From Kiritimatiellia bacterium (GTDB taxonomy: Bacteria > Verrucomicrobiota > Kiritimatiellia > RFP12 > JBMNHG01), in NCBI GenBank assembly GCA_050950285.1, contig JBMNHG010000002.1, forward strand, positions 630,654 to 694,653: a DNA stretch of 64,000 nucleotides. Reading direction: 5' to 3'. A model generated the notes under the pieces. The model made no database searches. It saw nothing but the letters and a program-made list of their open reading frames with translations, and was not told the origin of the DNA. Below, in pieces: positions 34,601 through 61,359 of the stretch. Made by a program: the position numbers and the translations under genes. How positions within the stretch are numbered: position 1 is the stretch's first letter; the number at the start of each line of letters is the position of its first letter.

Positions 34601-36221
34601 CACCAACAGCGCCAGCGGCGTGCCGCACAGCCCGCTGGCCTACACCTACGACCTGCTTAACCGCGTCACGTCACGAAACGCCGACACCTTTGATTACAAC
34701 GCCAGAAGCGAAGTCACATCCGCCATCATCCAGCCCGCCCACACCAACCGCTACGCCTTCGACAACATAGGCAACGCGCTGTGGGCCTCGCTTAACTCCG
34801 TCACGAACATCTACACCGCCAACGAACTGAACCAGTATTTCCTGATTTCCAATCATGTCAATCATGTCAATCCTGTCCAAATTTCTCCCGTATACGATTT
34901 AGACGGAAATATGACGTGGGACGGGCGTTTCAACTACACGTATGATGCCGAGAACCGCCTTGTCGCCGCCTATTCCAACGGCCTGTGCGTAGTCTTCAAC
35001 GCCTACGATCATCTTAGCCGCCGCGTGTTGAAAATCTCACGCGGAGGCGCGGAGACACGGGGATTTGTCTACGACGGCTGGCTGCCGGTTCTCGAAATCG
35101 TCGCCACCGCCTCGGGCGTGACCACCAACCACTACGTTTGGGGTAAGGATATTTCCGGCACGCTTCAAGGCGCAGGTGGTGTAGGCGGTTTGCTGGCCGT
35201 CTCACTTAACGGTGCGTGGTACTTCCCCTTCTATGACAACAACGGCAACATCATGGCCTACGCCGACGAACAGGGTACCATCGTCGCCGAGTACGCCTAC
35301 GACGCCTTCGGGCGCACCATTGAGGCTACCGGCTCCATGGCCGACGCCTTCCGCCACCGCTTCAGCACGAAATATTACGATGCCGAAACCGGCCTCTACT
35401 ACTACGGCTACCGGTTCTATGATCCCGAGTTGATGAGATGGTTCAACAGGGATCCGACTAGGGAGAATGGGGGTTGGAACCTATATGCCTTTGTCGTAAA
35501 CGATCCATGCAACAAGATTGACGCCCTTGGTCTTGAATGGACAGTTAATCGGAACGGCTTTTCACAAGCTGATGCCGACTGCAAGTGCGATAACGTCGAG
35601 GAACTCGCAAAAAGGATAGGCCTTGAGGTTGCCGATTATCAGAAGTGGCTCTCTCAGGCAGACGGCCACCCTCTCCCATCTTCCGCGACTGAGGTCATGA
35701 AAAAACGTAAATTCCGGATACCCAATATCGTTTATGCCTACTGGGCGGGCGATGTCGGTTGGACGGGAAAAACGTGGGTCAACTGGAATTCCAGTATCAT
35801 CCACCTCAAGAACTTGGGGTTTGCCACCATCGCGCACAATCATACAGCAGGCAGCAGTTACGTGCTTCAAAACATACTGCAAGTTGCCGCCAGCAGTCGA
35901 GCATTGCACGGCCTGTATTACTGGGGGCACGGCTGGGCTCCATATCCGTCCTATGGCCTCACGACGTCAGGTGGCGATGACGTAGTCTACTATCGCAATG
36001 TCACGTTTGCAGATGGCACGGCTAAGTCAGGAGTCAGTTTGCCATACAAGATGGCGCTCGGACTCATCTATGCTTGCGATAGCAACAGCGGCAAGCCAGC
36101 ACTTTTTTCTGGAGCACCTGGCGGTATATGGCATGGGTATTCGGGAGCTCTCTATCCGATCATTCCGTTTCGCTATCATGTCAATTCACACATCCATCAT
36201 GGGGATCAGGAGACGAAGTGA
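28609..36221 (+). CDS. Full-length RHS/YD-repeat polymorphic toxin (~2500 aa), with an apparent frameshift cluster at ~31750-31845
   Basis: ORF 28609-32085 gives the N-terminal half (hydrophobic segments, DxDGDG repeats). ORF 28635-36221 gives the YD repeats, the core (FSTKYYDAETGLYYYGYRFYDP...NRDP), the cleavage motif NDPCNKIDALGL and a lower-GC tip. Could be a pseudogene or an assembly error. Confidence 0.85.
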
Positions 36222-44672: not shown

Positions 44673-46246
44673 CACTAGCATCCCATAGGCTTGCCGAAAT
44701 CACTCCTGCCTTCCCCCATTGGAAGTCAGCGCACGCGCTCAAGACGGGAGCGTCGGGCCGGATTGAAAAAAAGGGCTGACCTCCCGGCCGTCTGCCTGTA
44801 GCCTACAGGCATTATGAAAAAAAAAGCGACCAAGGCGCGTAAACGCGCAACCAAGAGGCCAGCGAGAACATCGTACACCACCCTGCGCCAGATCGTCCAG
44901 TGGATTCCCGCGGGATTGCCGGACAAGATCGCGCGCGACATCGGGGCGGACATCCGCGGATTCTCCTGCGCCAGCCATGTGCTGGCGCTGCTCTACGGCC
45001 ATATCGCCCGCGCGGGCAGCCTGAACGAGATCTGCGACGCGGCCCGGCTGCACGAGCCGGAGCTGAACCGCATCCGGGGCGCGACGGCCCCGAAGCGCAA
45101 CACCTTCTCCAACGCCAACCGGAGGCGCGACCCGGAGATCGCGGAGCGGCTCTACTGGGAGGTGTTCGAGCACCTCCGGACCATCTGCCCGTCCTTCACG
45201 CAGTACAAGAAGCACAAAGGCTTCATCTTCCGCCTGAAGCGCGGGATATTCGCCATCGACTCGACCACGCTGAAGCTCACGCTCGACTCGATCGACTGGG
45301 CCAGGCACCGCCGGAAGAAGGCCGCCGCCAAAACCCACATGGCCCTCGACGTCGGCAGCAGGCTGCCGACGTTCGCGGTCGTGGAGGACGCCGCGCACCA
45401 CGACTCGACGCGGGCGGACGCGCTGTGCGCGGGGCTGAAGGACGGCGACGTGCTGCTGGCGGACCGCGCCTACGTCGACTTCCTCTTCCTGCACGGACTC
45501 GCCGCGCGCGGCATCTTCTTCGTCCTGCGGGAGAAGGAGAACATGGACTTCGAGGTGCTGGAGGAGAGAGGGCATCCGGACCGGCGCATACTCAAGGACC
45601 AGACCATACGCCTGCGGGGCAGGCTGACGGCGGGAAAGTACCCCGGGCCCCTGCGCCGCGTCGCCGCCGTCGTCGAGGTGGACGGGCAGGATCGGGAAAT
45701 GACGTTCATCACCAACCATTTCGCGTGGAGCCCCCGCACCGTCTCCGAGCTCTACCGCGCCCGGTGGGTCATCGAGTCGTTCTTCAAGGAACTCAAGCAG
45801 ACGCTCCAGCTCAAGGATTTCGTCGGGTACAACGAGAACGCGGTCAAGTGGCAGGTCTGGGTCGGGCTGCTGGCGCATCTGCTGCTGCGCTTCCTCAAGC
45901 ACGTCTCGGAATGGGGACTGAGCTTTTCCCGGCTCGCCGGGGTCGTCAGGTCCGCCGTCTGGATGAAGATCGACCTGCTCGACGCCCTGCGGAAGTATGG
46001 GACAGCAGGCGGCCCAAAGCGCCCTGTAATTTCCGGGAAACAGCTCTATTTCCAAGGATTCGAGCCATTCGCGAGCCGGCCCGTGGGATAGCACATGCCC
46101 CAAAACCCCTGTTTTCGGGCATCCGGGCCGATCGCGCAGGCAAACACGTTTTCCGGGAACGCCTTTGAAATCGCGATAAATCCCTGCAAATCAATGGGGG
46201 AAAGGGGGCAATATGCCCGTTTTCAGCCGCCTATGGGATGCTAGTG
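44673..46246 (+). mobile_element. IS4-family insertion sequence, 1574 bp
   Basis: Perfect 18-bp terminal IRs CACTAGCATCCCATAGGC (44673-44690 and 46229-46246); 9-bp TSD ACTTCATCC (44664-44672 and 46247-46255). Confidence 0.95.
44814..46091 (+). CDS. IS4-family DDE transposase
   Basis: FAIDSTTL, KTHM, LADRAYVD, LYRARWVIESFFKELKQ (YREK-type motif). Confidence 0.93.
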   Translation: MKKKATKARKRATKRPARTSYTTLRQIVQWIPAGLPDKIARDIGADIRGFSCASHVLALLYGHIARAGSLNEICDAARLHEPELNRIRGATAPKRNTFSNANRRRDPEIAERLYWEVFEHLRTICPSFTQYKKHKGFIFRLKRGIFAIDSTTLKLTLDSIDWARHRRKKAAAKTHMALDVGSRLPTFAVVEDAAHHDSTRADALCAGLKDGDVLLADRAYVDFLFLHGLAARGIFFVLREKENMDFEVLEERGHPDRRILKDQTIRLRGRLTAGKYPGPLRRVAAVVEVDGQDREMTFITNHFAWSPRTVSELYRARWVIESFFKELKQTLQLKDFVGYNENAVKWQVWVGLLAHLLLRFLKHVSEWGLSFSRLAGVVRSAVWMKIDLLDALRKYGTAGGPKRPVISGKQLYFQGFEPFASRPVG

Positions 46247-49519: not shown

Positions 49520-52048
49520 ATGGTCTACGTCGACCGCCTCGCCGTTCGCAACGCCGACGCCTTCGGCTACAACTCCCAAAACGAAGTCGCGGCGGCAACC
49601 CAGCATTTCTTCGACGCGCTGGGGCGCGAGACCAACACGGTGGAGCGGTGCGCCAGAATTGAAGGCGCGCTGACCAATTCCGCCGCCGTCCACAACCGCG
49701 GCTGGGTGTCTTCCGAGACAACGGCCTATCCCTTCGGCATTTCCGACTACTCCGTCCACACCGACAAGCGCGGATTGCAAACCGTGGCGTTCTCCATCCC
49801 CTCGTCCGAGGCCGTGACCTCGGCCCGGTACGTCTTCGTTTCGCCGGAGGAGGAGAACCCCGCCATCATCGAAACCAGCACCTTCTTCCGAAACGGGCGC
49901 AGCGTTTCCACGCGGTACTGGGCAGGAGGGTGGTCGCGCGAGACGCGCTTCTCCCAATATGCGGAAGACGGCACGCGAAGCGACTTCGCCGTGTCCGAGG
50001 GCTCCGACTTCGACGGAGCGGTTACAAACTCGGTCGTGCAATTCGACTTCCTCCAGCGTGGCATCGTCCAGACCACGCCGCTTGAATCCGTCACGAACCT
50101 CTACGACGGGGCGAGTTCGCGCATCGTCCGCGTCCTGTCGTCGGCGTCGCCTGCCGTCACGCCCCTTTACAACGACCTCGGCGAACGCATCGGCGCGACG
50201 AGCGCCGGAGTCACCACGCTCTCGCAGGAAACCTACGAGACGGTTTCAAACGAAACGTGGCGCGTTTTCAGCAGCCTTCAAATCGCGGATGGCACCACCA
50301 ACCGCCTCGGCGTTTCGCGCTCCCGGCGCACGGGGCTTTCCAACGCCCTGCGCCGCCATGAAATCGTCACGGACGCCTCGGGCGCGACGACCGCCTCGAC
50401 CGCGTCGTTCGATCCGGAAAGCGGCATCCTCACCGTTGTTTCGACGACCGACGAACAAACGCCGGTCATCCGAAAGAGGCGATACGGACGGGACGTTGAA
50501 ATCAGCGACGCCACGGGAACCTGCTACCTGAAGCACGACCCGTTCGGTCGCGAATACATGCGCCGCCGGGACAACAAAACCTTGCACGGCCTACCCGCTG
50601 GACGGGAGGGTTTTCGACGACTGCGGCGATCTCGCCATCTCCCTTGTCTGCGAGCACGACAGCGCGACCTTCCTCGTCAAGTCCTTTGCATACGATTCCT
50701 TCGGCAATCTCGCCGAGATGCAAAACGAGATGGGTGAAACCGTCCTCAACGACCACGACGCCCTTGGAAATCTTTTGTGCCAATACGGCTCGGCGGCCCA
50801 TCCCGTCGGCTTCGACTATGATACCAGGGGGCGCATGAATGCGCTCGGCACCACTCGCGAAGGCGACGCCTGGGACGTCACGTCCTGGATTTACGACCGC
50901 GCCACCGGCCTTGTCGGCAGCAAGGTCCATGCCGACGATTCGGTCGTGTCCTACGCCTACACCCCGGACGGCAAGCCGCTTCGCACCACCTGGGCGCGGG
51001 GGGCTTGGAGGGAAAACGCCTACAATGCCAACGGCCTTTTGGCAGGCGTGTCGTACTCCGACGCCACACCCGCCGTTTCGCTCGATTACGACGCCTTCCA
51101 GCGTCTTGCTTCCGCCTCGAATGGCGTCGCCGCCTACACCTATGGAAACAGCGCCCTCGGCGTTGCCACGAACGAGACGGCGACGCTCGGCGGCGACGTC
51201 TGGACGTTGACACGCCGACTCGACGGCCGCCACCGCTTGGCTGGCATGTCCCTTTCGCCTGCGTCGCAGGGCGGGGGCGCGGCACCGTACTCGGTGGCGT
51301 ATGGCTACGACACCGAAGGACGCCTCGCCGCCGTCTCGAACGAGGTGTTTGCCGTTTCCTATGCATTCTCCTATCGGGGTTTGGATGCGGGCTATTCGCT
51401 TGCGTTGACCAACGGGGTTTCGTTGAACCGGGCATTGGCTCGCAACGGTTGGCGGCACGAACTGGTTCGCCGAGTGACCAACGCGACCTCCACGGGCTGG
51501 ACGAACACGCTCAACTACGCCTACGACGACGCGGGGCGCGTCACCGCCCGCAACGCCGACACCTTCGGCTACAACGCCCGAAGCGAGGTCACCAACGCAA
51601 CCCTGGGAGCCATAAACTACGCCTACGCCTACGACCACATAGGAAATCATACGGCTTCATCCGTTGATTCCGCGACCACGATTTACGAAGCCAACAGCCT
51701 GAACCAGTACACAACTATTGACACCATCACACCAAGCTATGATGCCGACGGGAACATGACATGGGACGGGCGTTTCAGCTATGCGTATGATGCCGAGAAT
51801 CGCCTGATTGCGGCGTATTCCAACACTGTCTGTATCGTTTCCAACGCCTATGACCATGCCAGCCGCCGTGTGTTGAAGTGGACACCGTGCCACACAACCA
51901 CCTTCGTTTATGACGGTTGGTTGCCAATCCTTGAGATTATTGCCACCGCCTCGGAAGTTGCCACAAATGCCTATGTATGGGGCAAAGACCTCTCCGGCAC
52001 CCTGCAAGGCGCGGGCGGCGTCGGTGGACTGCTTGCTGTTTCACTAAA
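49520..52048 (+). pseudogene. Orphan RHS cassette 4, 5' part (frameshift near 50580; interrupted by IS1380, then intron 1)
   Basis: HFFDALGRETNT...YD repeats...GAGGVGGLLAVSL. Continues at 53769-53806 (NDSWHFPLYDNNG) and at 55741. Confidence 0.85.
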
Positions 52049-53763
52049 CCTAAAAAGAGCAGTTGAACTTTCAAGTTATCATCCGGAGCATCATTTGGTC
52101 GCCTTCTGAGACTGGGTAGAGCACCCTTCCGCGCAGCCATTTGACGAACGCCGCCGACAAAATGATCGCCCAGACCTGCCCGGCGCTCAACTGCTCCGCA
52201 ATTGCCGCGAGGTTGTTCATGAACCTGCCGATCCTGTCCAGGACGAGGCGGACCTGTCCGCCCAGGGCGTGCGTCGAGGTCAGGCGCACGATCTTCCGGC
52301 GGCCGGTGGTGACCAGCCGGCCGACCGCGTGGAGCAGCAGGGGCCGGGATGTGACCGCCTCCATGTGGGTGTCCGGCCGGGCGAGGCGCGTGAAGATGTT
52401 CCACCAGTTGTAGACCAGGGCGACGATGCGGGCGATGATGCGGCAGCGCCGCAGGTCGCGGGTCACGAAGCCGCCCCAGCCCCACTGGTTCTTGATCTCG
52501 TCGAACACGTTCTCGCAGTCCGCCCGGTCCCTGTACAACTGGGACAGGGCCATGGCGTCCAGGGTTCCGTCGTTGGTCACCAGCACGGCATAGTCCCATG
52601 TCCGCGCGTCCGTGACCTCCGGGGCGAAGGCGAACTCCGGCCCGGAGGGGCGGGGCGGCTCCGCGCGCGCGGGGCGGCGCAGGAACACGCACCGGTCGCT
52701 CGGCTGTCCAGCCGGCCAGCTTCAGGCGGCTCTCGGACGCCCGCCAGCCCTCGCCGGCGTCGGTCCACGCCCGGCCGGGCGCCGCCAGCTCCCGGAGCCG
52801 CGACTTGATCTTCGGCGAGCGCCTCAGCTTGAACAGGTAGGGCTGCCCGCGCGCCTCGGCCTGCGCCATGACCTTCTCGCTGCCGTAGCCCACGTCCCCG
52901 CGTATCAGCCGCGGGCGGCACCCGGGCGGAAGCGAGTCGATGAGCTTCCACAGGCCGGGCATGCCGCAACCCCCCGAGTGCTGCTTCCCGGGCTGCACGT
53001 CGACGCCCAGCACGAGGCGCAGCGCGCCGATGAAGTACGTGTGGCAGTTGTGGCTGGGCCGCCCCGGCTTCTTGGGGTTGTAACCCAGCTCCGCGCCCTC
53101 CTGATGGCCGTAGAGCGGCTTGACCGTGCTGTCGATGTCCAGGACGTACGCCTCGGCGAGCAGCGGCTCGACGACCGTCCGCTCCAGCCCCGCCAGCCAC
53201 GTGTCCCAGGCCTCTTCCGTCCCGCGGCCCAGCGCCCTGCGGACGCTGTCTTCGGACACCACCTTGCCAAGCCCCAGGACCTCGGCCCCGACGCGGTCGG
53301 AACGCAGCGCGTTGATGTGGGCGTAACGCGTCTGCCCGTTGAGGACGGAAAGCAGCAGCGTCCCCATCACGTCGCGCGCGGCGGGGGCATTGTTGCTCTT
53401 GTACTCCAGCGGCGAGGAGTCGCAGAAACGATCCGGCAGGCCGCCGGTCTTAAGGTACTGGGCGAAGAACACGACGGAGCCCGTCGGCGTCACTTTCGCG
53501 TCGGCGTCCCACTCCACTTCGAAGCATCCGCCGCCCCCGCGGACCAGCAGCCTGCGGATCTCCGCTTGATCCAGAAGCGCCCCTGTGCCATCATTCCCAT
53601 ACGCAACGGTGTCGTTCATCCTATACTCCTTTTTTTAGGTTCAATCAGAAGTATAGGGCGCACCGTTGCGTTTTGCACCAAATAGGTGCGGCGCGAATCT
53701 CAACGAAAGCCAGTGTTTACAGGCCTTTGCTCAAAATCCGCACACCCAACTGCTCTTTTTAGG
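52049..53763 (-). mobile_element. IS1380-family insertion sequence, 1715 bp
   Basis: Perfect 17-bp IRs CCTAAAAAGAGCAGTTG (52049-52065 and 53747-53763); 5-bp TSD CTAAA (52044-52048 and 53764-53768). Confidence 0.92.
52071..53619 (-). pseudogene. IS1380-family transposase with one frameshift near 52690
   Basis: LDIDSTVKPLYGHQEGAELGYNP and IRGDVGYG in one frame; LYRDRADCENVFDEIKNQWGW in the next frame. Confidence 0.85.
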
Positions 53764-53806
53764 CTAAATGATTCGTGGCATTTCCCGCTTTACGACAACA
53801 ATGGAA

Positions 53807-55740
53807 GTGCGCCAAGCGAAGCTCGGCGCTTCTTGCGGGGTGCGAGTCCCCGCCGAGTAAGGACCAGCCACCCACTCGTACCGAGTGTTGGCACTATGGA
53901 AGAGGAGTCGAATCCGAATGAAGTAGTGTAAGCGTACACAGGGAACTCCGCAGGCCGCAGGGGGGATGCACCCTCCCGAAGCGGTTCAGCCTCGTTAAGC
54001 GATCATGCGCAGGGCGACATGCTTGCCGTCATGGAAGCCAGCAACAAGGACGCGCAAGGGCTTGCGTCCGGTGACTGCGCCGGGGTCTACGGCGCGCGGC
54101 ATGCGGGGAGAGAAGCGAACGGGAACTTGGGAGACCCGCCGCCGTCCGCGCCCTGCGAGGGGCGTGGTAGCGTCCGCCGAGCCGAAAGGGAAGGCGGCGC
54201 GACGCGGCGGCGGGAGTCAGACCGCCCCATAGTACTCCGAGACGGGCGAGCCGGTCACACGGGGAAGGGGGCGGCGGGGCTGCGAAGCCCGCAAAGGGAA
54301 CAGGCAAGGACGGATATGAGAGGCTGTCAAACACTGCAAACCTCACTGCGGGGAATAGCGGATCGGGCGCGACGCGACCCGAAGGCGCGATTCCGCGACG
54401 TGTACAGGCTGCTCGACGAGGCGAACCTGCGCGAGTGCTTCCGAGCGCTGCGCAGGGACGCCGCGCCGGGGGTTGACCGGGTGACGTTCGATGATTACGA
54501 GCGCGACCTGGAGGCCAATCTCTCGGCACTGGTCGAGCGGCTCAAGCACAAGCGGTACCGCGCCCGACTGGTGCGCAGGGTGTACATCCCGAAGGGAGGC
54601 GGGAAACTGCGTCCCCTCGGAATCCCTGTGCTGGAGGACAAACTGCTGCAAATGGCCGTGGCGAAGGTGCTCACGGCGATCTACGAAGAGGACTTCCTGC
54701 CGGCGAGCCGGGGCTACCGTCCCGGCGGCGACGCCCGCGAGACGAGCCGCGAATGGGCGGCGAGGCTCGGCGGGGGGAGCTACGCGTGGGTGGTCGATGC
54801 GGACATCAAGGGCTTCTTCGAGCATGTCGATCACGACTGGATGCTCAGGATGCTGGAGCTTCGCATCGACGACAAGCCGTTTCTGCGGCTGGTGCGCAAA
54901 TGGCTCAAGGCGGGAGTGCTCGAAACGGACGGACGGGTGCTGCATCCGACGGAAGGGACGCCCCAAGGCGGGGTGGTCTCGCCGGTGCTGGCGAACGTCT
55001 ACCTGCACTACGCGCTGGATCTCTGGTTCGACCGCGTGGTCAGGAGGACGACGCCGGGCCGATGCGTGATGCTGCGCTACGCCGACGACTTCGTGGTCGC
55101 CTTCGAGCGGCGCGAGGACGCGGAACGCTTCCTTGGGGAACTGCCCGGGCGACTGGGCAAGTTCGGCCTGGAGCTGTCGGGGGAGAAGACGCGGCTGGTG
55201 CGCTTCGAGCGGGGCAACCCGTCGGGCGACAACGGCGGCTTCGACTTCCTGGGGTTCCAGTACCACTGGGAGCGTACGCGAAACGGACGCTGGAAGGTGC
55301 AGCGCCGGACGGCTCCGAGCCGTCTCCGGCGGTCGGTGGAACGCTTCGCCGAGTGGATCAAGGCCAACCGGGGCGGACGCCTGCCCGTTCTCATGGAACG
55401 GCTGGGGCGCAAGCTCGCGGGGTACTGGCAGTACTACGGCGTGACGGGCAACGGGCGCAGCCTGTGCAAGTTCTGGAGGCAGGTGGTGGCTGGGCTCTAC
55501 AAGTGGCTCAACCGCAGAAGCCAGAAGCGGGGCTTGACCTGGGTCCGTCTCAATGCGATCCTCAAGCGCCACGGGGTGCCGGGACCGCGGATCACCGAGA
55601 GCGGGCAGATGCTGTTTTCCTTCATGGGGGCGCGTTGAAGACCGAGTGCAAAGCGAGCAGTCCCGAAGAGCCCGGTGCGGGAATTCCGCACGCCGGGATC
55701 CGTGCGGGGGGCGCCCGGCAACGGGCGTCCCTACCGCGAT
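53807..55740 (+). mobile_element. Group II intron 1 (1934 nt, En-minus)
   Basis: 5' GTGCG; domain V GAGCCCGGTGCGGGAATTCCGCACGCCGGGATC at 55668-55700; domain VI hairpin with a bulged A; 3' end ...CGAT. Removal gives GAC AAC AAT GGA A|AC ATC ACG GCC = DNNGNITA. Confidence 0.95.
54316..55638 (+). CDS. ltrA: Group II intron reverse transcriptase/maturase
   Basis: APGVD, IPKGGGKLRPLGIP, VVDADIKGFF, GTPQGGVVSPVLANVYLH, RYADD, FDFLGF, domain X; no HNH domain. Confidence 0.95.
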   Translation: MRGCQTLQTSLRGIADRARRDPKARFRDVYRLLDEANLRECFRALRRDAAPGVDRVTFDDYERDLEANLSALVERLKHKRYRARLVRRVYIPKGGGKLRPLGIPVLEDKLLQMAVAKVLTAIYEEDFLPASRGYRPGGDARETSREWAARLGGGSYAWVVDADIKGFFEHVDHDWMLRMLELRIDDKPFLRLVRKWLKAGVLETDGRVLHPTEGTPQGGVVSPVLANVYLHYALDLWFDRVVRRTTPGRCVMLRYADDFVVAFERREDAERFLGELPGRLGKFGLELSGEKTRLVRFERGNPSGDNGGFDFLGFQYHWERTRNGRWKVQRRTAPSRLRRSVERFAEWIKANRGGRLPVLMERLGRKLAGYWQYYGVTGNGRSLCKFWRQVVAGLYKWLNRRSQKRGLTWVRLNAILKRHGVPGPRITESGQMLFSFMGAR

Positions 55741-56684
55741 ACATCACGGCCTATGTTGACGAGAACGGCACCATCGTGGCGGAATATACCTACGATGCCT
55801 TCGGCCGCACCATCGCGGCAACCGGATCTCTAGCCGACGCCTTCCGCCACCGTTTCAGCACGAAATATTACGATGCCGAAACCGGTCTCTACTACTACGG
55901 CTACCGGTTCTACGCCCCCGAGTTGATGCGGTGGCTGAACCGGGATCCGATTGGAGAGGCCGGGGGTGACAGCCTATACATATACTGTGGAAACAATCCT
56001 TCGGATAATTTTGATTCACATGGTCATGTCTGGGTTGTAAATAGAAAAGCAGAACTACCATATGCAATTGCAATAGCAAATCATGATAATGACAATTTTG
56101 ACGATCTGGCGGAATTGCTGGGATTAGATAGTAAGGACTACACTGACTGGGCTCATACCTCCGACTCCTCTGCAATAAAATGCAAGGAATACAAAATACC
56201 TAACACCATATATTACCAACATGGGCAGCTTAAGCTGCACGATCATGTTTTCTCCAATATAATTAACATATGGCGCAATCAGAATCTTCAGCAAGCCGAT
56301 CTTGATCGTGAAAGCAAATTCCATGTTATATGGCAGGAGAATGTCGCGGATAACGCTATTTCAGAAGCATTAGGCAATCCATATTTATATCAATATATTT
56401 TCACCGGGCATGGAGCGCTGGATGGTATAATTAACTCATACAAGAGTGAAGGTATAATGCCGGGGAGATATACCAAATATGGCATAAATTTGTTGCGATT
56501 AAATGCGTGTGGAAGTGCAGACAAAGGACTTGTTGCTTCAAAGGGGATATTTTATAAGTATAACGAGTGGGAATGGAACGTTGCTGTTCGGGGTAAATTT
56601 GTTGGATATGCCGGAGAGATAAACACTTTCACTGAAGTTCTTGGTTGGCGCATAACTTTGGGCAAGAACAGGAAAGGATATTGA
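55741..56684 (+). pseudogene. Orphan RHS cassette 4, 3' exon: core end plus a tip homologous to the main-gene tip
   Basis: ITAYVDENG...FSTKYYDAETGLYYYG...NNPSDNFDSHGH, then an AT-rich tip with YIFTGHG and LNACGS. Confidence 0.85.
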
Positions 56685-57205
56685 TGACAACACGCATGTT
56701 TAAAGGTTTTTTTGGGGGTGATTTCGTTTTTCGTGGCTGCAGGCTATGTGCCGTTGTTAGCCTTGTATTGCTTCTGGTCGGAATTTTCATATCCCCCTTA
56801 ACGCGCTCAAAAGAAACAGAAACTAAAAACATTATTAGGCAAGTATACGCACTTGTCGAATACGTCGCATTTGCCAATGGACTCAGTTCGGAAGATCTTC
56901 TATCAGCACAATCGGAAACCAATACCCCTGCATTATTCTTGGAAAGCATTACTAGGCAAGCTCTTTCTGAAGGTCTCGCTCCGCCTTCCTTAAAGAACGG
57001 GACAATAACTGACCGGTGGGGAAGGCAGCTTAATGTCGCATGGCGTTACAGTCTAGCCGAGAATGGTGATGCCAAGAGATTGTCACAGTATCCCTCGATA
57101 TTTGTTGTCTGGTCTTCAGGAAATAACGGGATAAACGAGTTCGGGGATGGAGATGATGTGAGTTTGCCGCCTCACATGTTTAGCTGTAACCATGTTGCAG
57201 ATTGA
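56684..57205 (+). CDS. Putative immunity protein; membrane anchor plus a GspG-like C-terminal motif
   Basis: TGATG overlap with the toxin stop; one TM helix; DRWGRQL...FVVWSSGNNGINEFGDGDDV. Confidence 0.6.
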   Translation: MTTRMFKGFFGGDFVFRGCRLCAVVSLVLLLVGIFISPLTRSKETETKNIIRQVYALVEYVAFANGLSSEDLLSAQSETNTPALFLESITRQALSEGLAPPSLKNGTITDRWGRQLNVAWRYSLAENGDAKRLSQYPSIFVVWSSGNNGINEFGDGDDVSLPPHMFSCNHVAD

Positions 57206-57249
57206 AGTAACATCACAAGCACACCAATCTAATACATTGGAGCGCGAAG

Positions 57250-57619
57250 ATGCACTTTATAATCACTGATCGCCAACATAAAGACACCGCCATCACCTAT
57301 GGCGGCGACACACCCGCCATCGCGCTTACCTACGCCTACACGTCCGACAACCGTGATGAGGGCTACACCATCACACTGCCCAACGGCATGCTCCTCTCCC
57401 GTACCGTCATCCACGACCCCTACCGACGCAGTCTGGTAAAAGCCATCACCAACAGCGCCAGCGGTGTGCCGCACAAACCGCTGGCCTACACCTACGACCT
57501 CCTCAACCGCGTCACGTCACGAAACGCCGACACCTTTGATTACAACGCCCGCTCCGAGGTCACTTCCGCCATCATCCAGCCCGCCCACACCAACCGCTAC
57601 GCCTTCGACAACATAGGCA
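57250..57619 (+). pseudogene. Orphan RHS cassette 5, 5' exon (short internal RHS fragment)
   Basis: 57450-57619 is close to the main gene at ~34600-34773 (PLAYTYDLLNRVTSRNADTFDYNARSEVTSAIIQPAHTNRYAFDNIG). Left boundary is approximate. Confidence 0.82.
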
Positions 57620-59551
57620 GTGCGCCAAGCGAAGCTCGGCGCTTCTTGCGGGGTGGAAGTCCCCGCCGAGTAAGGACCAGCCATCCACTCGTACCGAGTG
57701 TTGGCACTATGGAAGAGGAGTCGAATCCGAATGAAGTAGTGTAAGCGTACACAGGGAACTTCGCAGGCCGCAGGGAGGATGCACCCTCCCGAAGCGGTTC
57801 AGCCCCGTTAATTGATCATGCGCAGGGCGACATGTTTGCCTACATGGAAGCCAGCAACAAGAACGCGCAACTGGCTTGCGTCCGGTGACTGCGCCGGGGT
57901 CTACGGCGCGCGGCATGTGGAGAGAGAAGCGAACGGGAACTTGGGAGACCCGTCGCCGTCCGCGTCCGCGAGGGCGCGGTAGCGACCGCCGAGCCGAAGG
58001 GGAAGGCGGCGCGACGCGGCGGCGGGAGTCAGACCGCCCCATAGTACTCCGAGACGGGCGAGCCGATCACACGGGGAAGGGGGCGGCGGGGCTGCGAAGC
58101 CCGCAAAGGAAACAGGAAAGATGGACACGACAGGCTGTCAAACACTGCAAACCTCACTGCGGGGAATAGCGGATCGGGCGCGACGCGACCCGAAGGCGCG
58201 ATTCCGCGACGTGTACAGGCTGCTCAACGAGGCGAACCTGCGCGAATGCTTTCGGGCGTTGCGAAGGGACGCCGCGCCGGGGATTGACCGGGTGACGTTC
58301 GACGACTACGAACGCGACCTCGACGCCAACCTCGCGGCGTTGGTCGAGCGGCTCAAGCACAAGCGGTACCACGCCCGACTGGTGCGCAGGGTGAACATTC
58401 CAAAGGGGGGCGGGAAACTGCGTCCCCTCGGAATCCCTGTGCTGGAGGACAAACTTCTGCAAATGGCCGTGGCGAAGGTGCTAACGGCGATCTACGAAGA
58501 GGACTTCCTGCCGGCGAGCCGGGGCTACCGTCCCGGCGGCGACGCCCGCGAGGCCAGCCGCGAATGGGCGGCGAGGCTCGGCGGGGGGAGCTATGCGTGG
58601 GTGGTCGATGCGGACATCAAGGGCTTCTTCGAGCACGTCGATCACGACTGGATGCTCAGGATGCTGGAGCTTCGCATCGACGACAAGCCGTTTCTGCGGC
58701 TGGTGCGCAAATGGCTCAAGGCGGGGGTGCTCGAAACGGACGGACGGGTGCTGCATCCGACGGAGGGGACGCCCCAAGGCGGGGTGGTCTCGCCGGTGCT
58801 GGCGAACGTCTACCTGCACTACGCGCTGGATCTCTGGTTCGACCGCGTGGTCAGGAGGACGACGCCGGGCCGATGCGTGATGCTGCGCTACGCCGACGAC
58901 TTCGTGGTCGCCTTCGAGCGGCGCGAGGACGCGGAACGCTTCCTTGGGGAACTGCCCGGGCGACTGGGCAAGTTCGGCCTGGAGCTGTCGGGGGAGAAGA
59001 CGCGGCTGGTGCGCTTCGAGCGGGGCAACCCGTCGGGCGACAACGGCGGCTTCGACTTCCTGGGGTTCCAGTACCACTGGGAGCGTACGCGAAACGGACG
59101 CTGGAAGGTGCAGCGCCGGACGGCTCCGAGCCGTCTCCGGCGGTCGGTGGAACGCTTCGCCGAGTGGATCAAGGCCAACCGGGGCGAACGCCTGCCCGTT
59201 CTCATGGAACGGCTGGGGCGCAAGCTCGCGGGGTACTGGCAGTACTACGGCGTGACGGGCAACGGGCGCAGCCTGTGCAAGTTCTGGAGGCAGGTGGTGG
59301 CTGGGCTCTACAAGTGGCTCAACCGCAGAAGCCAGAAGCGGGGCTTGACCTGGGTCCGTCTCAATGCGATCCTCAAGCGCCACGGGGTGCCGGGACCGCG
59401 GATCACCGAGAGCGGGCAGATGCTGTTTTCCTTCATGGGGGCGCGTTGAAGACCGAGTGCAAAGCGAGCAGTCCCGAAGAGCCCGGTGCGGGAATTCCGC
59501 ACGCCGGGATCCGTGCGGGGGGCGCCCGGCAACGGGCGTCCCTACCGCGAT
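57620..59551 (+). mobile_element. Group II intron 2 (1932 nt), variant of intron 1
   Basis: Same 5' GTGCGCCAAGCGAAG and 3' CCCTACCGCGAT ends. Removal gives GAC AAC ATA GGC A|AC TTG CTG ACC = DNIGNLLT. Confidence 0.95.
58121..59449 (+). CDS. ltrA: Group II intron reverse transcriptase/maturase
   Basis: Nearly identical to 54316-55638; intact YADD. Confidence 0.95.
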   Translation: MDTTGCQTLQTSLRGIADRARRDPKARFRDVYRLLNEANLRECFRALRRDAAPGIDRVTFDDYERDLDANLAALVERLKHKRYHARLVRRVNIPKGGGKLRPLGIPVLEDKLLQMAVAKVLTAIYEEDFLPASRGYRPGGDAREASREWAARLGGGSYAWVVDADIKGFFEHVDHDWMLRMLELRIDDKPFLRLVRKWLKAGVLETDGRVLHPTEGTPQGGVVSPVLANVYLHYALDLWFDRVVRRTTPGRCVMLRYADDFVVAFERREDAERFLGELPGRLGKFGLELSGEKTRLVRFERGNPSGDNGGFDFLGFQYHWERTRNGRWKVQRRTAPSRLRRSVERFAEWIKANRGERLPVLMERLGRKLAGYWQYYGVTGNGRSLCKFWRQVVAGLYKWLNRRSQKRGLTWVRLNAILKRHGVPGPRITESGQMLFSFMGAR

Positions 59552-60948
59552 ACTTGCTGACCAACGGCGTTTGGTCTTACACGTGGGACTGCGAGAATCG
59601 GCTTGCCACGGCGTCCTCAAACAACGTTTGCGTTGTTTCCAACGCCTACGACTACCTTTCCCGCCGCGTCCTGAAGGCCACGCCCGAGGCGGTTCACGCC
59701 TTCGTCTACGACGGCTGGAACTTGATCCACGAAACCGTGACGGCAGTCAACGGCGACGTTTCGGAAATCCAGTACTTCTGGGGGCCCGACCTCTCCGGCA
59801 CGCTCCAAGGCGCGGGCGGCGTCGGCGGCTTGCTGGCCGTTTCCATCAACGGGCAGTTCTACCTGCCTTGCGTTGACAACAACGGCAACATCACCGCCTA
59901 TGTTGGAGAAACTGGCTCTGTCGTGGCAGAGTATGTCTATGACGCCTATGGAGGCGCCATTGCCCAAACCGGAAGCATGGCAGATGCCTTCCGCCATCGT
60001 TTCAGCACAAAATACTACGACGTAGAAACGGGGCTTTACTACTACGGACGCCGGTTCTACTCGCCAACGCTCCACCGCTGGCTCAACCGTGATCCGATCC
60101 AAGAACAAGGAGGGGCGAATCTGTATGCGTTTTGCAGAAATGATGGAGTGAACGCCGTGGATTTGCTGGGGCTTGCCTTGTATGCCTTTGATGGAACCTG
60201 GAATGACAAGGACAAAATGAAGCGTCCGACCAATGTCGCCAAGCTATATGAAGCTTACCAGAATCCAAGCAAAGTATACATGAAAGGAATTGGAACAGCC
60301 TCCTTGACAAGGGTGATCGGCGGCATAACGGGCGCTGGTGGTAAAAGCCGAGTTCATGCTATGTATCGTAGGCTTGTGAAATTTTACAATACACCTGATT
60401 CAACTGGCGAAAATCAAAAAATTGATGTCATCGGCTTCAGTCGTGGCGCAGCGCTTGCGCGCGATTTCGTGAACTACATCAACGAGCAAGGCGGCGTGCC
60501 CAGAACGACGAAAAACGGCAAGGAAATTGTTTGCCCCGTGACGATTCGCTTCCTGGGCCTTTTTGACACGGTGGCCTCCTTTGGGATACCCGGAAATGGC
60601 GTAAACCTCGGATACGATCTCTCCATCCCCGGCAACGTGGAACAGGTTCGCCATGCGATTGCCCAAGATGAATATCGCGGCATGTTCCCCCTCTCGCCCG
60701 TTTTGGATCCGGACGGGACCGGTGTCGATCCAAGAATCGTTGAACGTCCCTTCCGGGGCTCGCATTCTGATATCGGCGGAGGATATGACGTTGGAGACCG
60801 ATCGAATTTCGCCTTGAACTGGATGTATCACGAGGCCATCCGAGTGGGCGTGCCCTTTGGGCCGCTCAATCCCGAAGACATCGGCGCAAGCGATCCGGTC
60901 ATGCACGACACCGGAGGCACGGGGCCCCGGGACATCGATTACCCATAA
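59552..60948 (+). pseudogene. Orphan RHS cassette 5, 3' exon: RHS core plus a Tle1/DUF2235 phospholipase-like tip
   Basis: Core is close to cassette 2 from 38581; AVDLLGL then FDGTWND, TNVAKLY, IGFSRGAALAR, FLGLFDTV, HAIAQDEYR, FRGSHSDIGGGY. Confidence 0.9.
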
Positions 60949-60972
60949 GGACCAGCAAACGAGGAGATTGCC

Positions 60973-61359
60973 ATGAAGAGAAAGCCAATCCGTATTTTTC
61001 CATCAGCAACGGTTTCGATTATGATGTCGGCGCTTGGGGGATGCATGACACGGGACTATGCGGTCGGAATAAGAAACAGAACCGAAAAGATGATACATGA
61101 AGCCAGTGTGTCATACGATGGGTTCCAGTCGGTTGGAGGTACAATTGGGGCAGGTCGCGCTTCCGTACACCATTCTCCAGAAGTCCCCATACCCAAGGTT
61201 GCACAAGTCGAATGGCAAACAGAAGACGGTGTTTTTCATCGGCGGAATGTCGAGGTTAAAAAACATATGCCAAGAGGTTTTGGCGTGTATTGGTATTTGA
61301 TGTTTGAAATCACGGACGGGGAGGTTGTTCTTCGCTTTTTGGAAGACAGGGGGCAATAA
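60973..61359 (+). CDS. Putative immunity lipoprotein for the Tle1-like tip
   Basis: GAGGAG RBS; lipobox-like ALGGC; directly after the toxin. Confidence 0.68.
   Translation: MKRKPIRIFPSATVSIMMSALGGCMTRDYAVGIRNRTEKMIHEASVSYDGFQSVGGTIGAGRASVHHSPEVPIPKVAQVEWQTEDGVFHRRNVEVKKHMPRGFGVYWYLMFEITDGEVVLRFLEDRGQ

Follow-up and report, generated by a model that had tools for sequence, protein, structure and literature searches.

Two complete group II introns inside the YD repeats of RHS genes in a Kiritimatiellia bacterium

Introduction

Bacterial group II introns lie mostly in mobile or noncoding DNA. Here we describe two that interrupt protein-coding repeats, in a stretch of 64,000 nucleotides ("the window") from the genome of a Kiritimatiellia bacterium. 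The genome has 4,045,209 bases in 12 contigs, and the window is contig C2, positions 630654-694653. The introns sit in genes of the RHS family, and the reverse transcriptase (RT)/maturase that each encodes has no endonuclease (En) domain. The En-less intron RmInt1 of Sinorhizobium meliloti reportedly homes into ISRm2011-2, using a repeated element as its home through pairing between exon-binding sites (EBS) of the intron and intron-binding sites (IBS) of the exon. The target of RmInt1 is thus an insertion sequence, whereas that of the family described here is a codon motif of protein-coding repeats, with three positions per gene. The nearest described group II introns in Rhs regions are E.c.I9 and E.c.I2 of Escherichia coli, which are of a different class and have a different kind of target. 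E.c.I9 resembles the window introns in being En-less, in lying in an Rhs region and in having a multi-copy target, and the copy that we retrieved is flanked by an ISAs1 transposase and an RHS core pseudogene. It differs in that it resides in an insertion sequence and not in YD-repeat coding sequence. It also matches the Rfam models RF01999 and RF00029 and not RF02005, whereas the window introns match RF02005 and not RF00029. The two RTs are 36% identical over 287 amino acids.

A second set of known systems concerns the exchange of gene ends. In rhs loci, the C-terminal end is said to be displaced through recombination with orphan cassettes, as reportedly described by Jackson and co-workers in 2009. 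The window has the same layout, a lead gene followed by 5'-truncated orphan cassettes with alternative tips, in which homologous recombination can act in the conserved core. The difference is that the window cassettes also offer 1.9 kb of intron homology, which is more alike between copies than the RHS core is. As an example of intron-mediated exchange, Ll.LtrB and Ef.PcfG, which lie in conjugative relaxase genes, have been linked to exon shuffling, which is reported to proceed both through trans-splicing and through recombination of DNA (LaRoche-Johnston et al., PMC7947834). That system is alike in having an intron in a conserved family of open reading frames (ORFs) and chimeric-gene junctions exactly at the intron site. 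It has one site per gene and its introns are En-plus, whereas the family described here appears to have several sites of the same phase, many paralogues, and chimeras that retain the intron. An rhs-like ORF of the Bryopsis hypnoides chloroplast is interrupted by a 267 bp intron (PMC4487195). That intron is organellar and without an ORF, and it is the only printed intron in an rhs-family ORF that our literature search returned. In the same search, which covered neither subscription journals nor the Zimmerly intron database, we came across no earlier account of a group II intron in the YD repeats of RHS genes.

Two introns within RHS repeats

The window contains two complete group II introns with intact, En-less RT/maturases, both inside RHS repeats (Table 1). 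Intron 1 scores 101.8 bits and intron 2 scores 103.3 bits against the Rfam model RF02005 (group-II-D1D4-6; gathering score 49 bits), in each case over the full model from 1 to 225. The termini GTGCG...CGCGAT are found in all eight full-length copies in the genome and fit the GUGYG and AY ends of group II introns. Near the 3' end there is a hairpin of 33 nucleotides that resembles domain 5 (GAGCCCGG..CCGGGAUC) and is kept in 23 of 23 aligned relatives. A probable domain 6 comes next; it shows compensatory changes among the aligned relatives, and its bulged A lies eight bases before the 3' end. The two introns differ from each other at 61 of 1,942 aligned columns. The RT of intron 2 scores 343.3 bits against TIGR04416 (cutoff 300 bits) and matches RVT_1 with E 4e-33; its GIIM match is weak, at 21.2 bits, under the cutoff of 23. 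The YADD motif is present in the RT/maturases of both introns, and domain searches found no En domain in either.

At the junctions, where a caret marks the insertion point, intron 1 reads TAC GAC AAC AAT GGA A^GTGCG...CGCGAT^AC ATC and intron 2 reads TTC GAC AAC ATA GGC A^GTGCG...CGCGAT^AC TTG. Both introns are thus in phase 1 of an Asn codon, with one nucleotide upstream and two downstream, directly after (Y/F)-D-N-x-G.

Class C (IIC) introns insert immediately 3' of a terminator or of an attC-type hairpin. This habit is not seen here, as eight of nine 5' junctions in this genome lie within coding repeats, and a single relative (L015) is positioned after a hairpin and a T-run. Membership of class D, the E.c.I9/RmInt1 type, is not borne out in the comparison with one member either, given the low RT identity and the different Rfam models described above. 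The closest plasmid-borne RTs are just 42-43% identical to the window RT. The part of PMC3552965 that was available gave no class placement for it.

Copies and home sites in the genome

The genome has 13 matches to the intron: eight full-length copies, one that a contig end interrupts, one with an internal deletion, and some small fragments. The full-length copies differ from each other at 11-93 of 1,942 aligned columns (95-99% identity), and all eight have an open RT frame of about 440 amino acids or longer. Nine 5' junctions are visible. Eight of these follow (Y/F)-D-(N)-x-G and the first base of the Asn codon in RHS DNA, all in sense orientation and in phase 1, and the ninth adjoins the last base of another intron copy in a head-to-tail tandem. 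RHS-homologous DNA makes up 149,696 of the 4,045,209 bases (3.7% of the genome), so this placement is more than chance. A tblastn search with the lead RHS protein of the window maps this DNA to more than a dozen arrays, which are made up of lead genes and orphan cassettes.

The lead RHS protein has five D-x-x-G-N motifs, and the introns of this genome use three of them, called sites A, B and C, all near the end of the RHS core (Table 1). Four arrays can be seen in full context (this window, C3:564-580 kb, C6:2-19 kb and C8:808-821 kb), and in all four the introns are confined to the last one or two orphan cassettes. In the window array, 21 D-x-x-G-N codon motifs are unoccupied.

A preliminary description of the window had reported exactly these junctions, the phase in the Asn codon and two intact RTs, and re-reading the intron ends and the frames gave the same result. 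It also proposed that the introns occupy different RHS positions, which is correct (the 5' junctions are at sites A and B), and the empty sites that it named at 34768, 35242, 38455 and 38911 are real unoccupied D-x-x-G-N sites. Its statement that splicing leaves an open RHS frame stands as far as the reading frame goes. It does not stand for the pairing of the exons, since intron 2 joins site B to site C. The use of the third site, the frequent non-cognate exon pairs and a tandem intron pair go beyond that description.

Choice of target

In a set of 20 introns, a hexamer in a domain 1 loop can pair with the six bases at the end of the 5' exon, and the loop varies with the target. On average 5.45 of 6 pairs form, compared with 3.84 when partners are mismatched, and none of 10,000 shuffles reached the observed total. 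All six pairs form in 10 of the 20 introns and five in another 9. Because of this pairing and covariation, the hexamer is identified as EBS1, and the suggestion of the preliminary description that target choice goes through EBS-IBS pairing is borne out. The pairing is UGCCUA:UAGGCA at site B, and UUCCGU:ACGGAA and UGCCGU:ACGGCA at A- and C-type exons. In relatives, EBS1 has been retargeted, with UGGGGU:GCCCCA in L015, CGAGGA:UCCUCG in L087 and AAAAUC:GAUUUU in L091. With few exceptions, the 3' exon begins with an A (+1). Visual inspection of the variable stretch that follows GUUA revealed no clear EBS3.

EBS1 and the +1 A alone are insufficient to explain the bias towards RHS, because perfect heptamers of IBS1 plus A for the EBS1 variants of this genome occur mostly outside RHS DNA (2,849, against 198 within it). 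If (T/A)(T/A)CGAY is added at -16 to -11, there are 78 targets in RHS and 27 outside, and TTCGAC-N4-TAGGCA^A occurs 22 times in RHS and not at all outside. A GUCGAA hexaloop that is complementary to TTCGAC at this position of site B is a tentative candidate for EBS2; covariation did not confirm it.

Exon pairs and rearrangement

Each copy can be described by the site of its 5' exon and the site of its 3' exon. Three copies are cognate: C2a (window intron 1) and C3a are A/A, and C7 is B/B. The others are non-cognate. C2b (window intron 2) is B/C, C6 is A/B and C8a is B/A; in C8b-C8c, a site-B exon is followed by two introns and a non-RHS tcctcg flank; and C3b is internally deleted with a non-RHS 3' flank. 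For intron 2 of the window, all seven intron-less homologues of the 3' exon (92-96% identical) have the 5' side of site C, and the homology begins at exon base +1. Joins of this kind stay in frame because the phase, 1 within an Asn codon, is common to all sites.

The variable positions of the eight full-length copies form a mosaic. Introns are also more alike than the exons that flank them; for example, C3a and C6 differ at 18 intron positions, and their 5' flanks are 87% identical. The tandem C8b-C8c (C8:821093-824963; loci L006 and L008) has no base between its two copies (..CGCGAT^GTGCG..), which show 66 differences. The first copy stands after an RHS site-B exon, and the second stands before non-RHS tcctcg repeat DNA. 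Ordinary retrohoming does not explain the tandem, because the end of the first copy offers no pairing partner for EBS1 of the second. The non-cognate exon pairs point to recombination between introns as their cause, and the simplest reading of the compared copies would be retrohoming into existing paralogous sites, followed by homologous exchange between intron copies.

Relatives in other genomes

Relatives were collected from genome contigs (33 loci), from 201 genomes of the same order and from metagenome contigs (79 loci). Close relatives, defined by an RT identity of 83% or more or an intron DNA identity of 85% or more, have at least one readable junction at 18 distinct outside sites. Six of these sites have an RHS hit (Pfam/NCBIfam) in the flank: L036/L114, L077, L078, L079, L082 and L086. 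Three more (L053, L084 and L144) show the YD motif alone. L079 is a cognate insertion at site C, L036/L114 and L077 have the 3' side of site A, and L086 has the 3' side of site C. The sites outside RHS are the intergenic site of L015, a tcctcg^tcctcg repeat site (L016, L087, L088 and L089), and a DUF4838-family gene interrupted at ..YVALG^N VFEWCWD (L081:559-2487). L080, L083, L085 and L014, together with the fragments L038 and L052, are non-RHS or unknown.

The preliminary description had also proposed an intron lineage adapted to the RHS motif. Eight of the nine 5' junctions of the present genome support this, and so do insertions into the same sites elsewhere. The lineage is not exclusive to RHS, since 9 of the 18 outside sites are non-RHS or unknown; equally, its close homologues do not lie mostly in non-RHS sites, with 6-9 of the 18 in RHS.

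A sister lineage (61-62% RT identity; L019:1068-2991, from a Chitinophagales metagenome-assembled genome, and L101:2-2241) lies within RHS genes at a different motif, GYRYY^xPxxGRW. This site is inside the RHS-associated core domain, in phase 1 of a Tyr codon. Among the junctions read for relatives at 40-59% identity, there were no RHS flanks. An RT tree places the RHS-borne groups in one clade (Shimodaira-Hasegawa-like approximate likelihood ratio test 98), to which L091 and L092, not in RHS, also belong. Clustering of the RHS label on this tree is not significant, as 54 of 500 shuffles were as low. This was a quick tree that left out RTs below 47% identity, except for five outgroups, as well as all loci whose RT frame is partial or interrupted, L036, L053 and L144 among them.

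Some of the relatives have flanks that deserve a mention of their own. The RT of L081 is 90% identical to that of the window, and its insertion point, with DUF4838 on the 5' side and VFEWCWDRYGSTYY on the 3' side, is a look-alike of the RHS target (TACGTC-N4-TTGGCA^A). We take the 3' side to be sulfatase-modifying-factor-like. The sub-lineage of L087:1488-3417, also present at L016, L088 and L089 (83-85% RT identity), sits in a noncoding simple repeat, GTCCTCGTCCTCG^TCCTCG. Its EBS1, CGAGGA, is a perfect match of 6 bp, and a conserved element of 65 nucleotides lies downstream in both genomes. The tcctcg flank recurs 3' of L082 and at C8:824964 of the present genome (G000). L084:1497-3425 lies between an IS66-family transposase frame on the 5' side (..RLDANG^; PF03050, E 4e-21) and an RHS exon of site A on the 3' side, and would be either a hybrid from exchange between introns or a chimeric metagenome contig.

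Possible explanations

It is probable that these copies belong to a young family of En-less group II introns that homes to (Y/F)-D-x-x-G^N in RHS genes, and that the copies later recombined. The intron RNA would find its DNA target by base pairing between EBS1 and the last six bases of the 5' exon, of the form nnGGnA. A further contact would probably be made 11-16 nucleotides upstream, with the (T/A)(T/A)CGAY codons for Y/F-D. IBS1, the +1 A and the upstream contact would together spell the motif of the YD repeats. RHS paralogues would then present dozens of near-identical targets and hence a multi-copy home, a role that can be likened to that of the insertion sequences for RmInt1 or E.c.I9. 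Resident 1.9-kb copies could recombine with each other, which would give the non-cognate exon pairs, the tandem pair, and the hybrids of RHS and non-RHS flanks. The introns would be expected to splice, and the family is probably still mobile at present. A codon motif repeated across a large toxin gene family would be another route by which a retroelement reaches many safe targets, and it would place long, near-identical spacers of the same phase in genes whose evolution involves the exchange of their ends. A test set for target choice by introns without an endonuclease is available in the 20 natural EBS1/IBS1 pairs, together with the possible upstream contact.

Several observations weigh against the homing of a young family to this motif. 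Many targets are empty: 24 exact site-B targets (GACAACATAGGCAAC), and about 30 targets of the site-A pattern, which has 32 matches, 30 of them in RHS context. Empty targets are also found in the lead gene 23 kb upstream. Mobility must therefore be infrequent, lost or under negative selection. Because the RHS flanks are paralogous, the count of independent insertions is uncertain, with at least 3-4 sites involved. Only the copies of this genome, L053 and L144 have the candidate EBS2 hexaloop, and its target is 4 nucleotides from IBS1, which is an unusual spacing. The remaining relatives have other loops at this position, with a GNRA tetraloop in L087 and L091. The Rfam model for domains 5 and 6 (RF00029) has no match in the window introns at E up to 1. 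Contigs of three public metatranscriptome runs (X15-X17) and of the public DNA run X1 were compared with positions 53000-61000, and none links 53806 with 55741 or 57619 with 59552. These contigs are of low depth, and their lack of joined exons therefore says nothing on splicing either way. Some RNA contigs do cover relatives of the intron, one with a 5' exon ending FDLNG^ and one at a tcctcg site. One DNA contig of X1 has an empty site B, for which the paralogues of this genome also account.

The copies could also have arisen without any adaptation to RHS, if one or a few chance insertions in orphan cassettes were multiplied by duplication and gene conversion and RHS genes were simply tolerant, silent, repeated DNA. 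Near-duplicate flanks are what this would predict (the 5' flanks of C7 and C8a are 96% identical over 300 nucleotides), and it would agree with the position of every copy in an orphan cassette and never in a lead gene, with the many perfect targets that are empty, and with the half of the relatives' sites that is non-RHS or unknown. We nevertheless find it quite unlikely, as the introns use three different RHS sites, which are also occupied in other assemblies where the exon sequences differ. EBS1 also tracks the site, being UGCCUA at B and UUCCGU or UGCCGU at A-type exons. Both the greater likeness of the introns than of their flanks and the RHS position of the sister lineage (L019 and L101) at another motif argue against it too. 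Purifying selection against insertions elsewhere is an alternative source of the RHS bias. A rather unlikely explanation, which concerns the rearrangements only, is that the non-cognate pairs, the tandem and the hybrid flanks are assembly artefacts, misjoins over a 1.9-kb repeat, and that all introns are truly cognate. A misjoin within an intron would leave exactly such a signature, contigs C7 and C12 terminate at or in the intron/RHS repeats, and the hybrid flanks of relatives (L082, L084 and L078) come from metagenome contigs, which are likely short-read assemblies. On the other hand, a genome of 12 contigs in which 150 kb of RHS repeats is resolved suggests long reads, and the 66 differences between the copies of the tandem are not something that an assembler invents. 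The reciprocal A/B and B/A types and the mosaic pattern of single-nucleotide polymorphisms also fit real exchange. Non-cognate pairs, if real, would be natural evidence that introns mediate in-frame rearrangement of protein-coding repeats in a bacterium.

Two proposals go further. The intron copies could act as portable, frame-preserving joints for RHS toxin genes, either by DNA recombination or by reverse or trans-splicing onto the lead transcript. This is a long shot, which if true would mean that one RHS shell can be fitted with different orphan tips or with core segments of varied length, as a bacterial counterpart to exon shuffling via introns of the same phase. It is highly improbable that splicing serves the host by gating toxin production, in line with the suggestion of the preliminary description that toxin expression depends on splicing, or that reverse or trans-splicing joins the lead RHS transcript to orphan tips as a host function. 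The common phase 1 in the Asn codon would let any 5' exon join any 3' exon in frame, and the lead mRNA would hold perfect IBS sites; the common phase is, however, a trivial consequence of a single target motif, and the lead genes are without introns. Bacterial group II introns are also usually selfish. There is a precedent for intergenic trans-splicing and chimeric genes in the report on Ll.LtrB and Ef.PcfG (PMC7947834).

Cassettes, lead gene and neighbouring elements

The host genes fit an RHS/YD-repeat polymorphic toxin: the lead gene contains PF05593, each 3' exon has TIGR03696, and cassette 2 ends in a Tle1-like tip. In a tblastn comparison, the 5' exon of intron 2 matches residues 1946-2048 of the lead RHS protein at 82% identity. 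That of intron 1 consists of only about 33-38 nucleotides of RHS sequence, and it is truncated by a repeat resembling the end of an insertion sequence. This repeat of 169 nucleotides (53600-53768) has four copies in the genome, at 97-99% identity. The depth of contigs from DNA run X1 is very high across 53534-53800.

Table 1. Features of the window and the evidence for each. Positions count from the first base of the window; a caret marks the insertion point.
Feature	Position	Strand	Evidence or remark
Group II intron 1 (copy C2a)	53807-55740	+	GTGCG...CGCGAT ends; Rfam RF02005 at 53843-54095
RT/maturase ORF of intron 1	54316-55638	+	440 amino acids, uninterrupted
EBS1 of intron 1 (UGCCGU)	54024-54029	+	5/6 pairs with AUGGAA
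GUCGAA hexaloop, candidate EBS2 (tentative)	53907-53912	+	Complementary to TTCGAC, exon -16 to -11 of site B
Probable domain 5 of intron 1	55668-55700	+	Alignment of 23 relatives and fold
Probable domain 6 of intron 1, bulged A at 55733	55701-55740	+	Alignment of 23 relatives and fold
Group II intron 2 (copy C2b)	57620-59551	+	GTGCG...CGCGAT ends; Rfam RF02005 at 57656-57909
RT/maturase ORF of intron 2 (protein P0001)	58121-59449	+	442 amino acids, uninterrupted
EBS1 of intron 2 (UGCCUA)	57837-57842	+	6/6 pairs with UAGGCA
Remnant 5' exon of orphan cassette 1 (..WHFPLYDNNG and first Asn base), site A	53774-53806	+	33-nucleotide match with G000:C6:16122-16154, a 5' exon of site A
3' exon of cassette 1: RHS core end (downstream side of site A), then AT-rich C-terminal tip	55741-56684	+	TIGR03696, E 2.2e-23 on 55743-56684
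5' exon of orphan cassette 2, ending FDNIG and first Asn base (site B)	57250-57619	+	tblastn; ATG at 57250
3' exon of cassette 2: RHS from downstream side of site C (N^LLTNGVWSYTWDCENRL..), core end, Tle1-like phospholipase tip	59552-60948	+	TIGR03696, E 3e-22 (read from +2); PF09994, E 4.4e-37
Lead RHS gene of the array, 2528 amino acids	28635-36221	+	PF05593 (YD repeats)
Site B in lead gene, unoccupied; FDNIGN^ALW, lead residue 2048	34761-34775	+	Motif scan
Site C in lead gene, unoccupied; YDLDGN^MTW, lead residue 2093	34896-34910	+	Motif scan
Site A in lead gene, unoccupied; YDNNGN^IMAY, lead residue 2206, 16 residues before core domain	35235-35249	+	Motif scan
IS4-like DDE transposase gene	51937-53619	-	Adjoins the 169-nucleotide repeat end

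No Pfam family matched the tip of cassette 1, nor the ORFs downstream of the two tips (56645-57205 and 60973-61359). The region 55980-57200, which holds the tip of cassette 1 and the first of these ORFs, is far more AT-rich than its GC-rich surroundings. Such a composition is typical of a foreign toxin/immunity module, which this region may represent.

A gap of 1.6 kb in RHS homology (44674-46243) was considered as a third element at site B. It turned out to be an ordinary DDE insertion sequence, five codons downstream of site B. This element lies inside another RHS orphan and has a DDE_Tnp_1 transposase at 44814-46091 and the inverted ends catcccataggc..gcctatgggatg.

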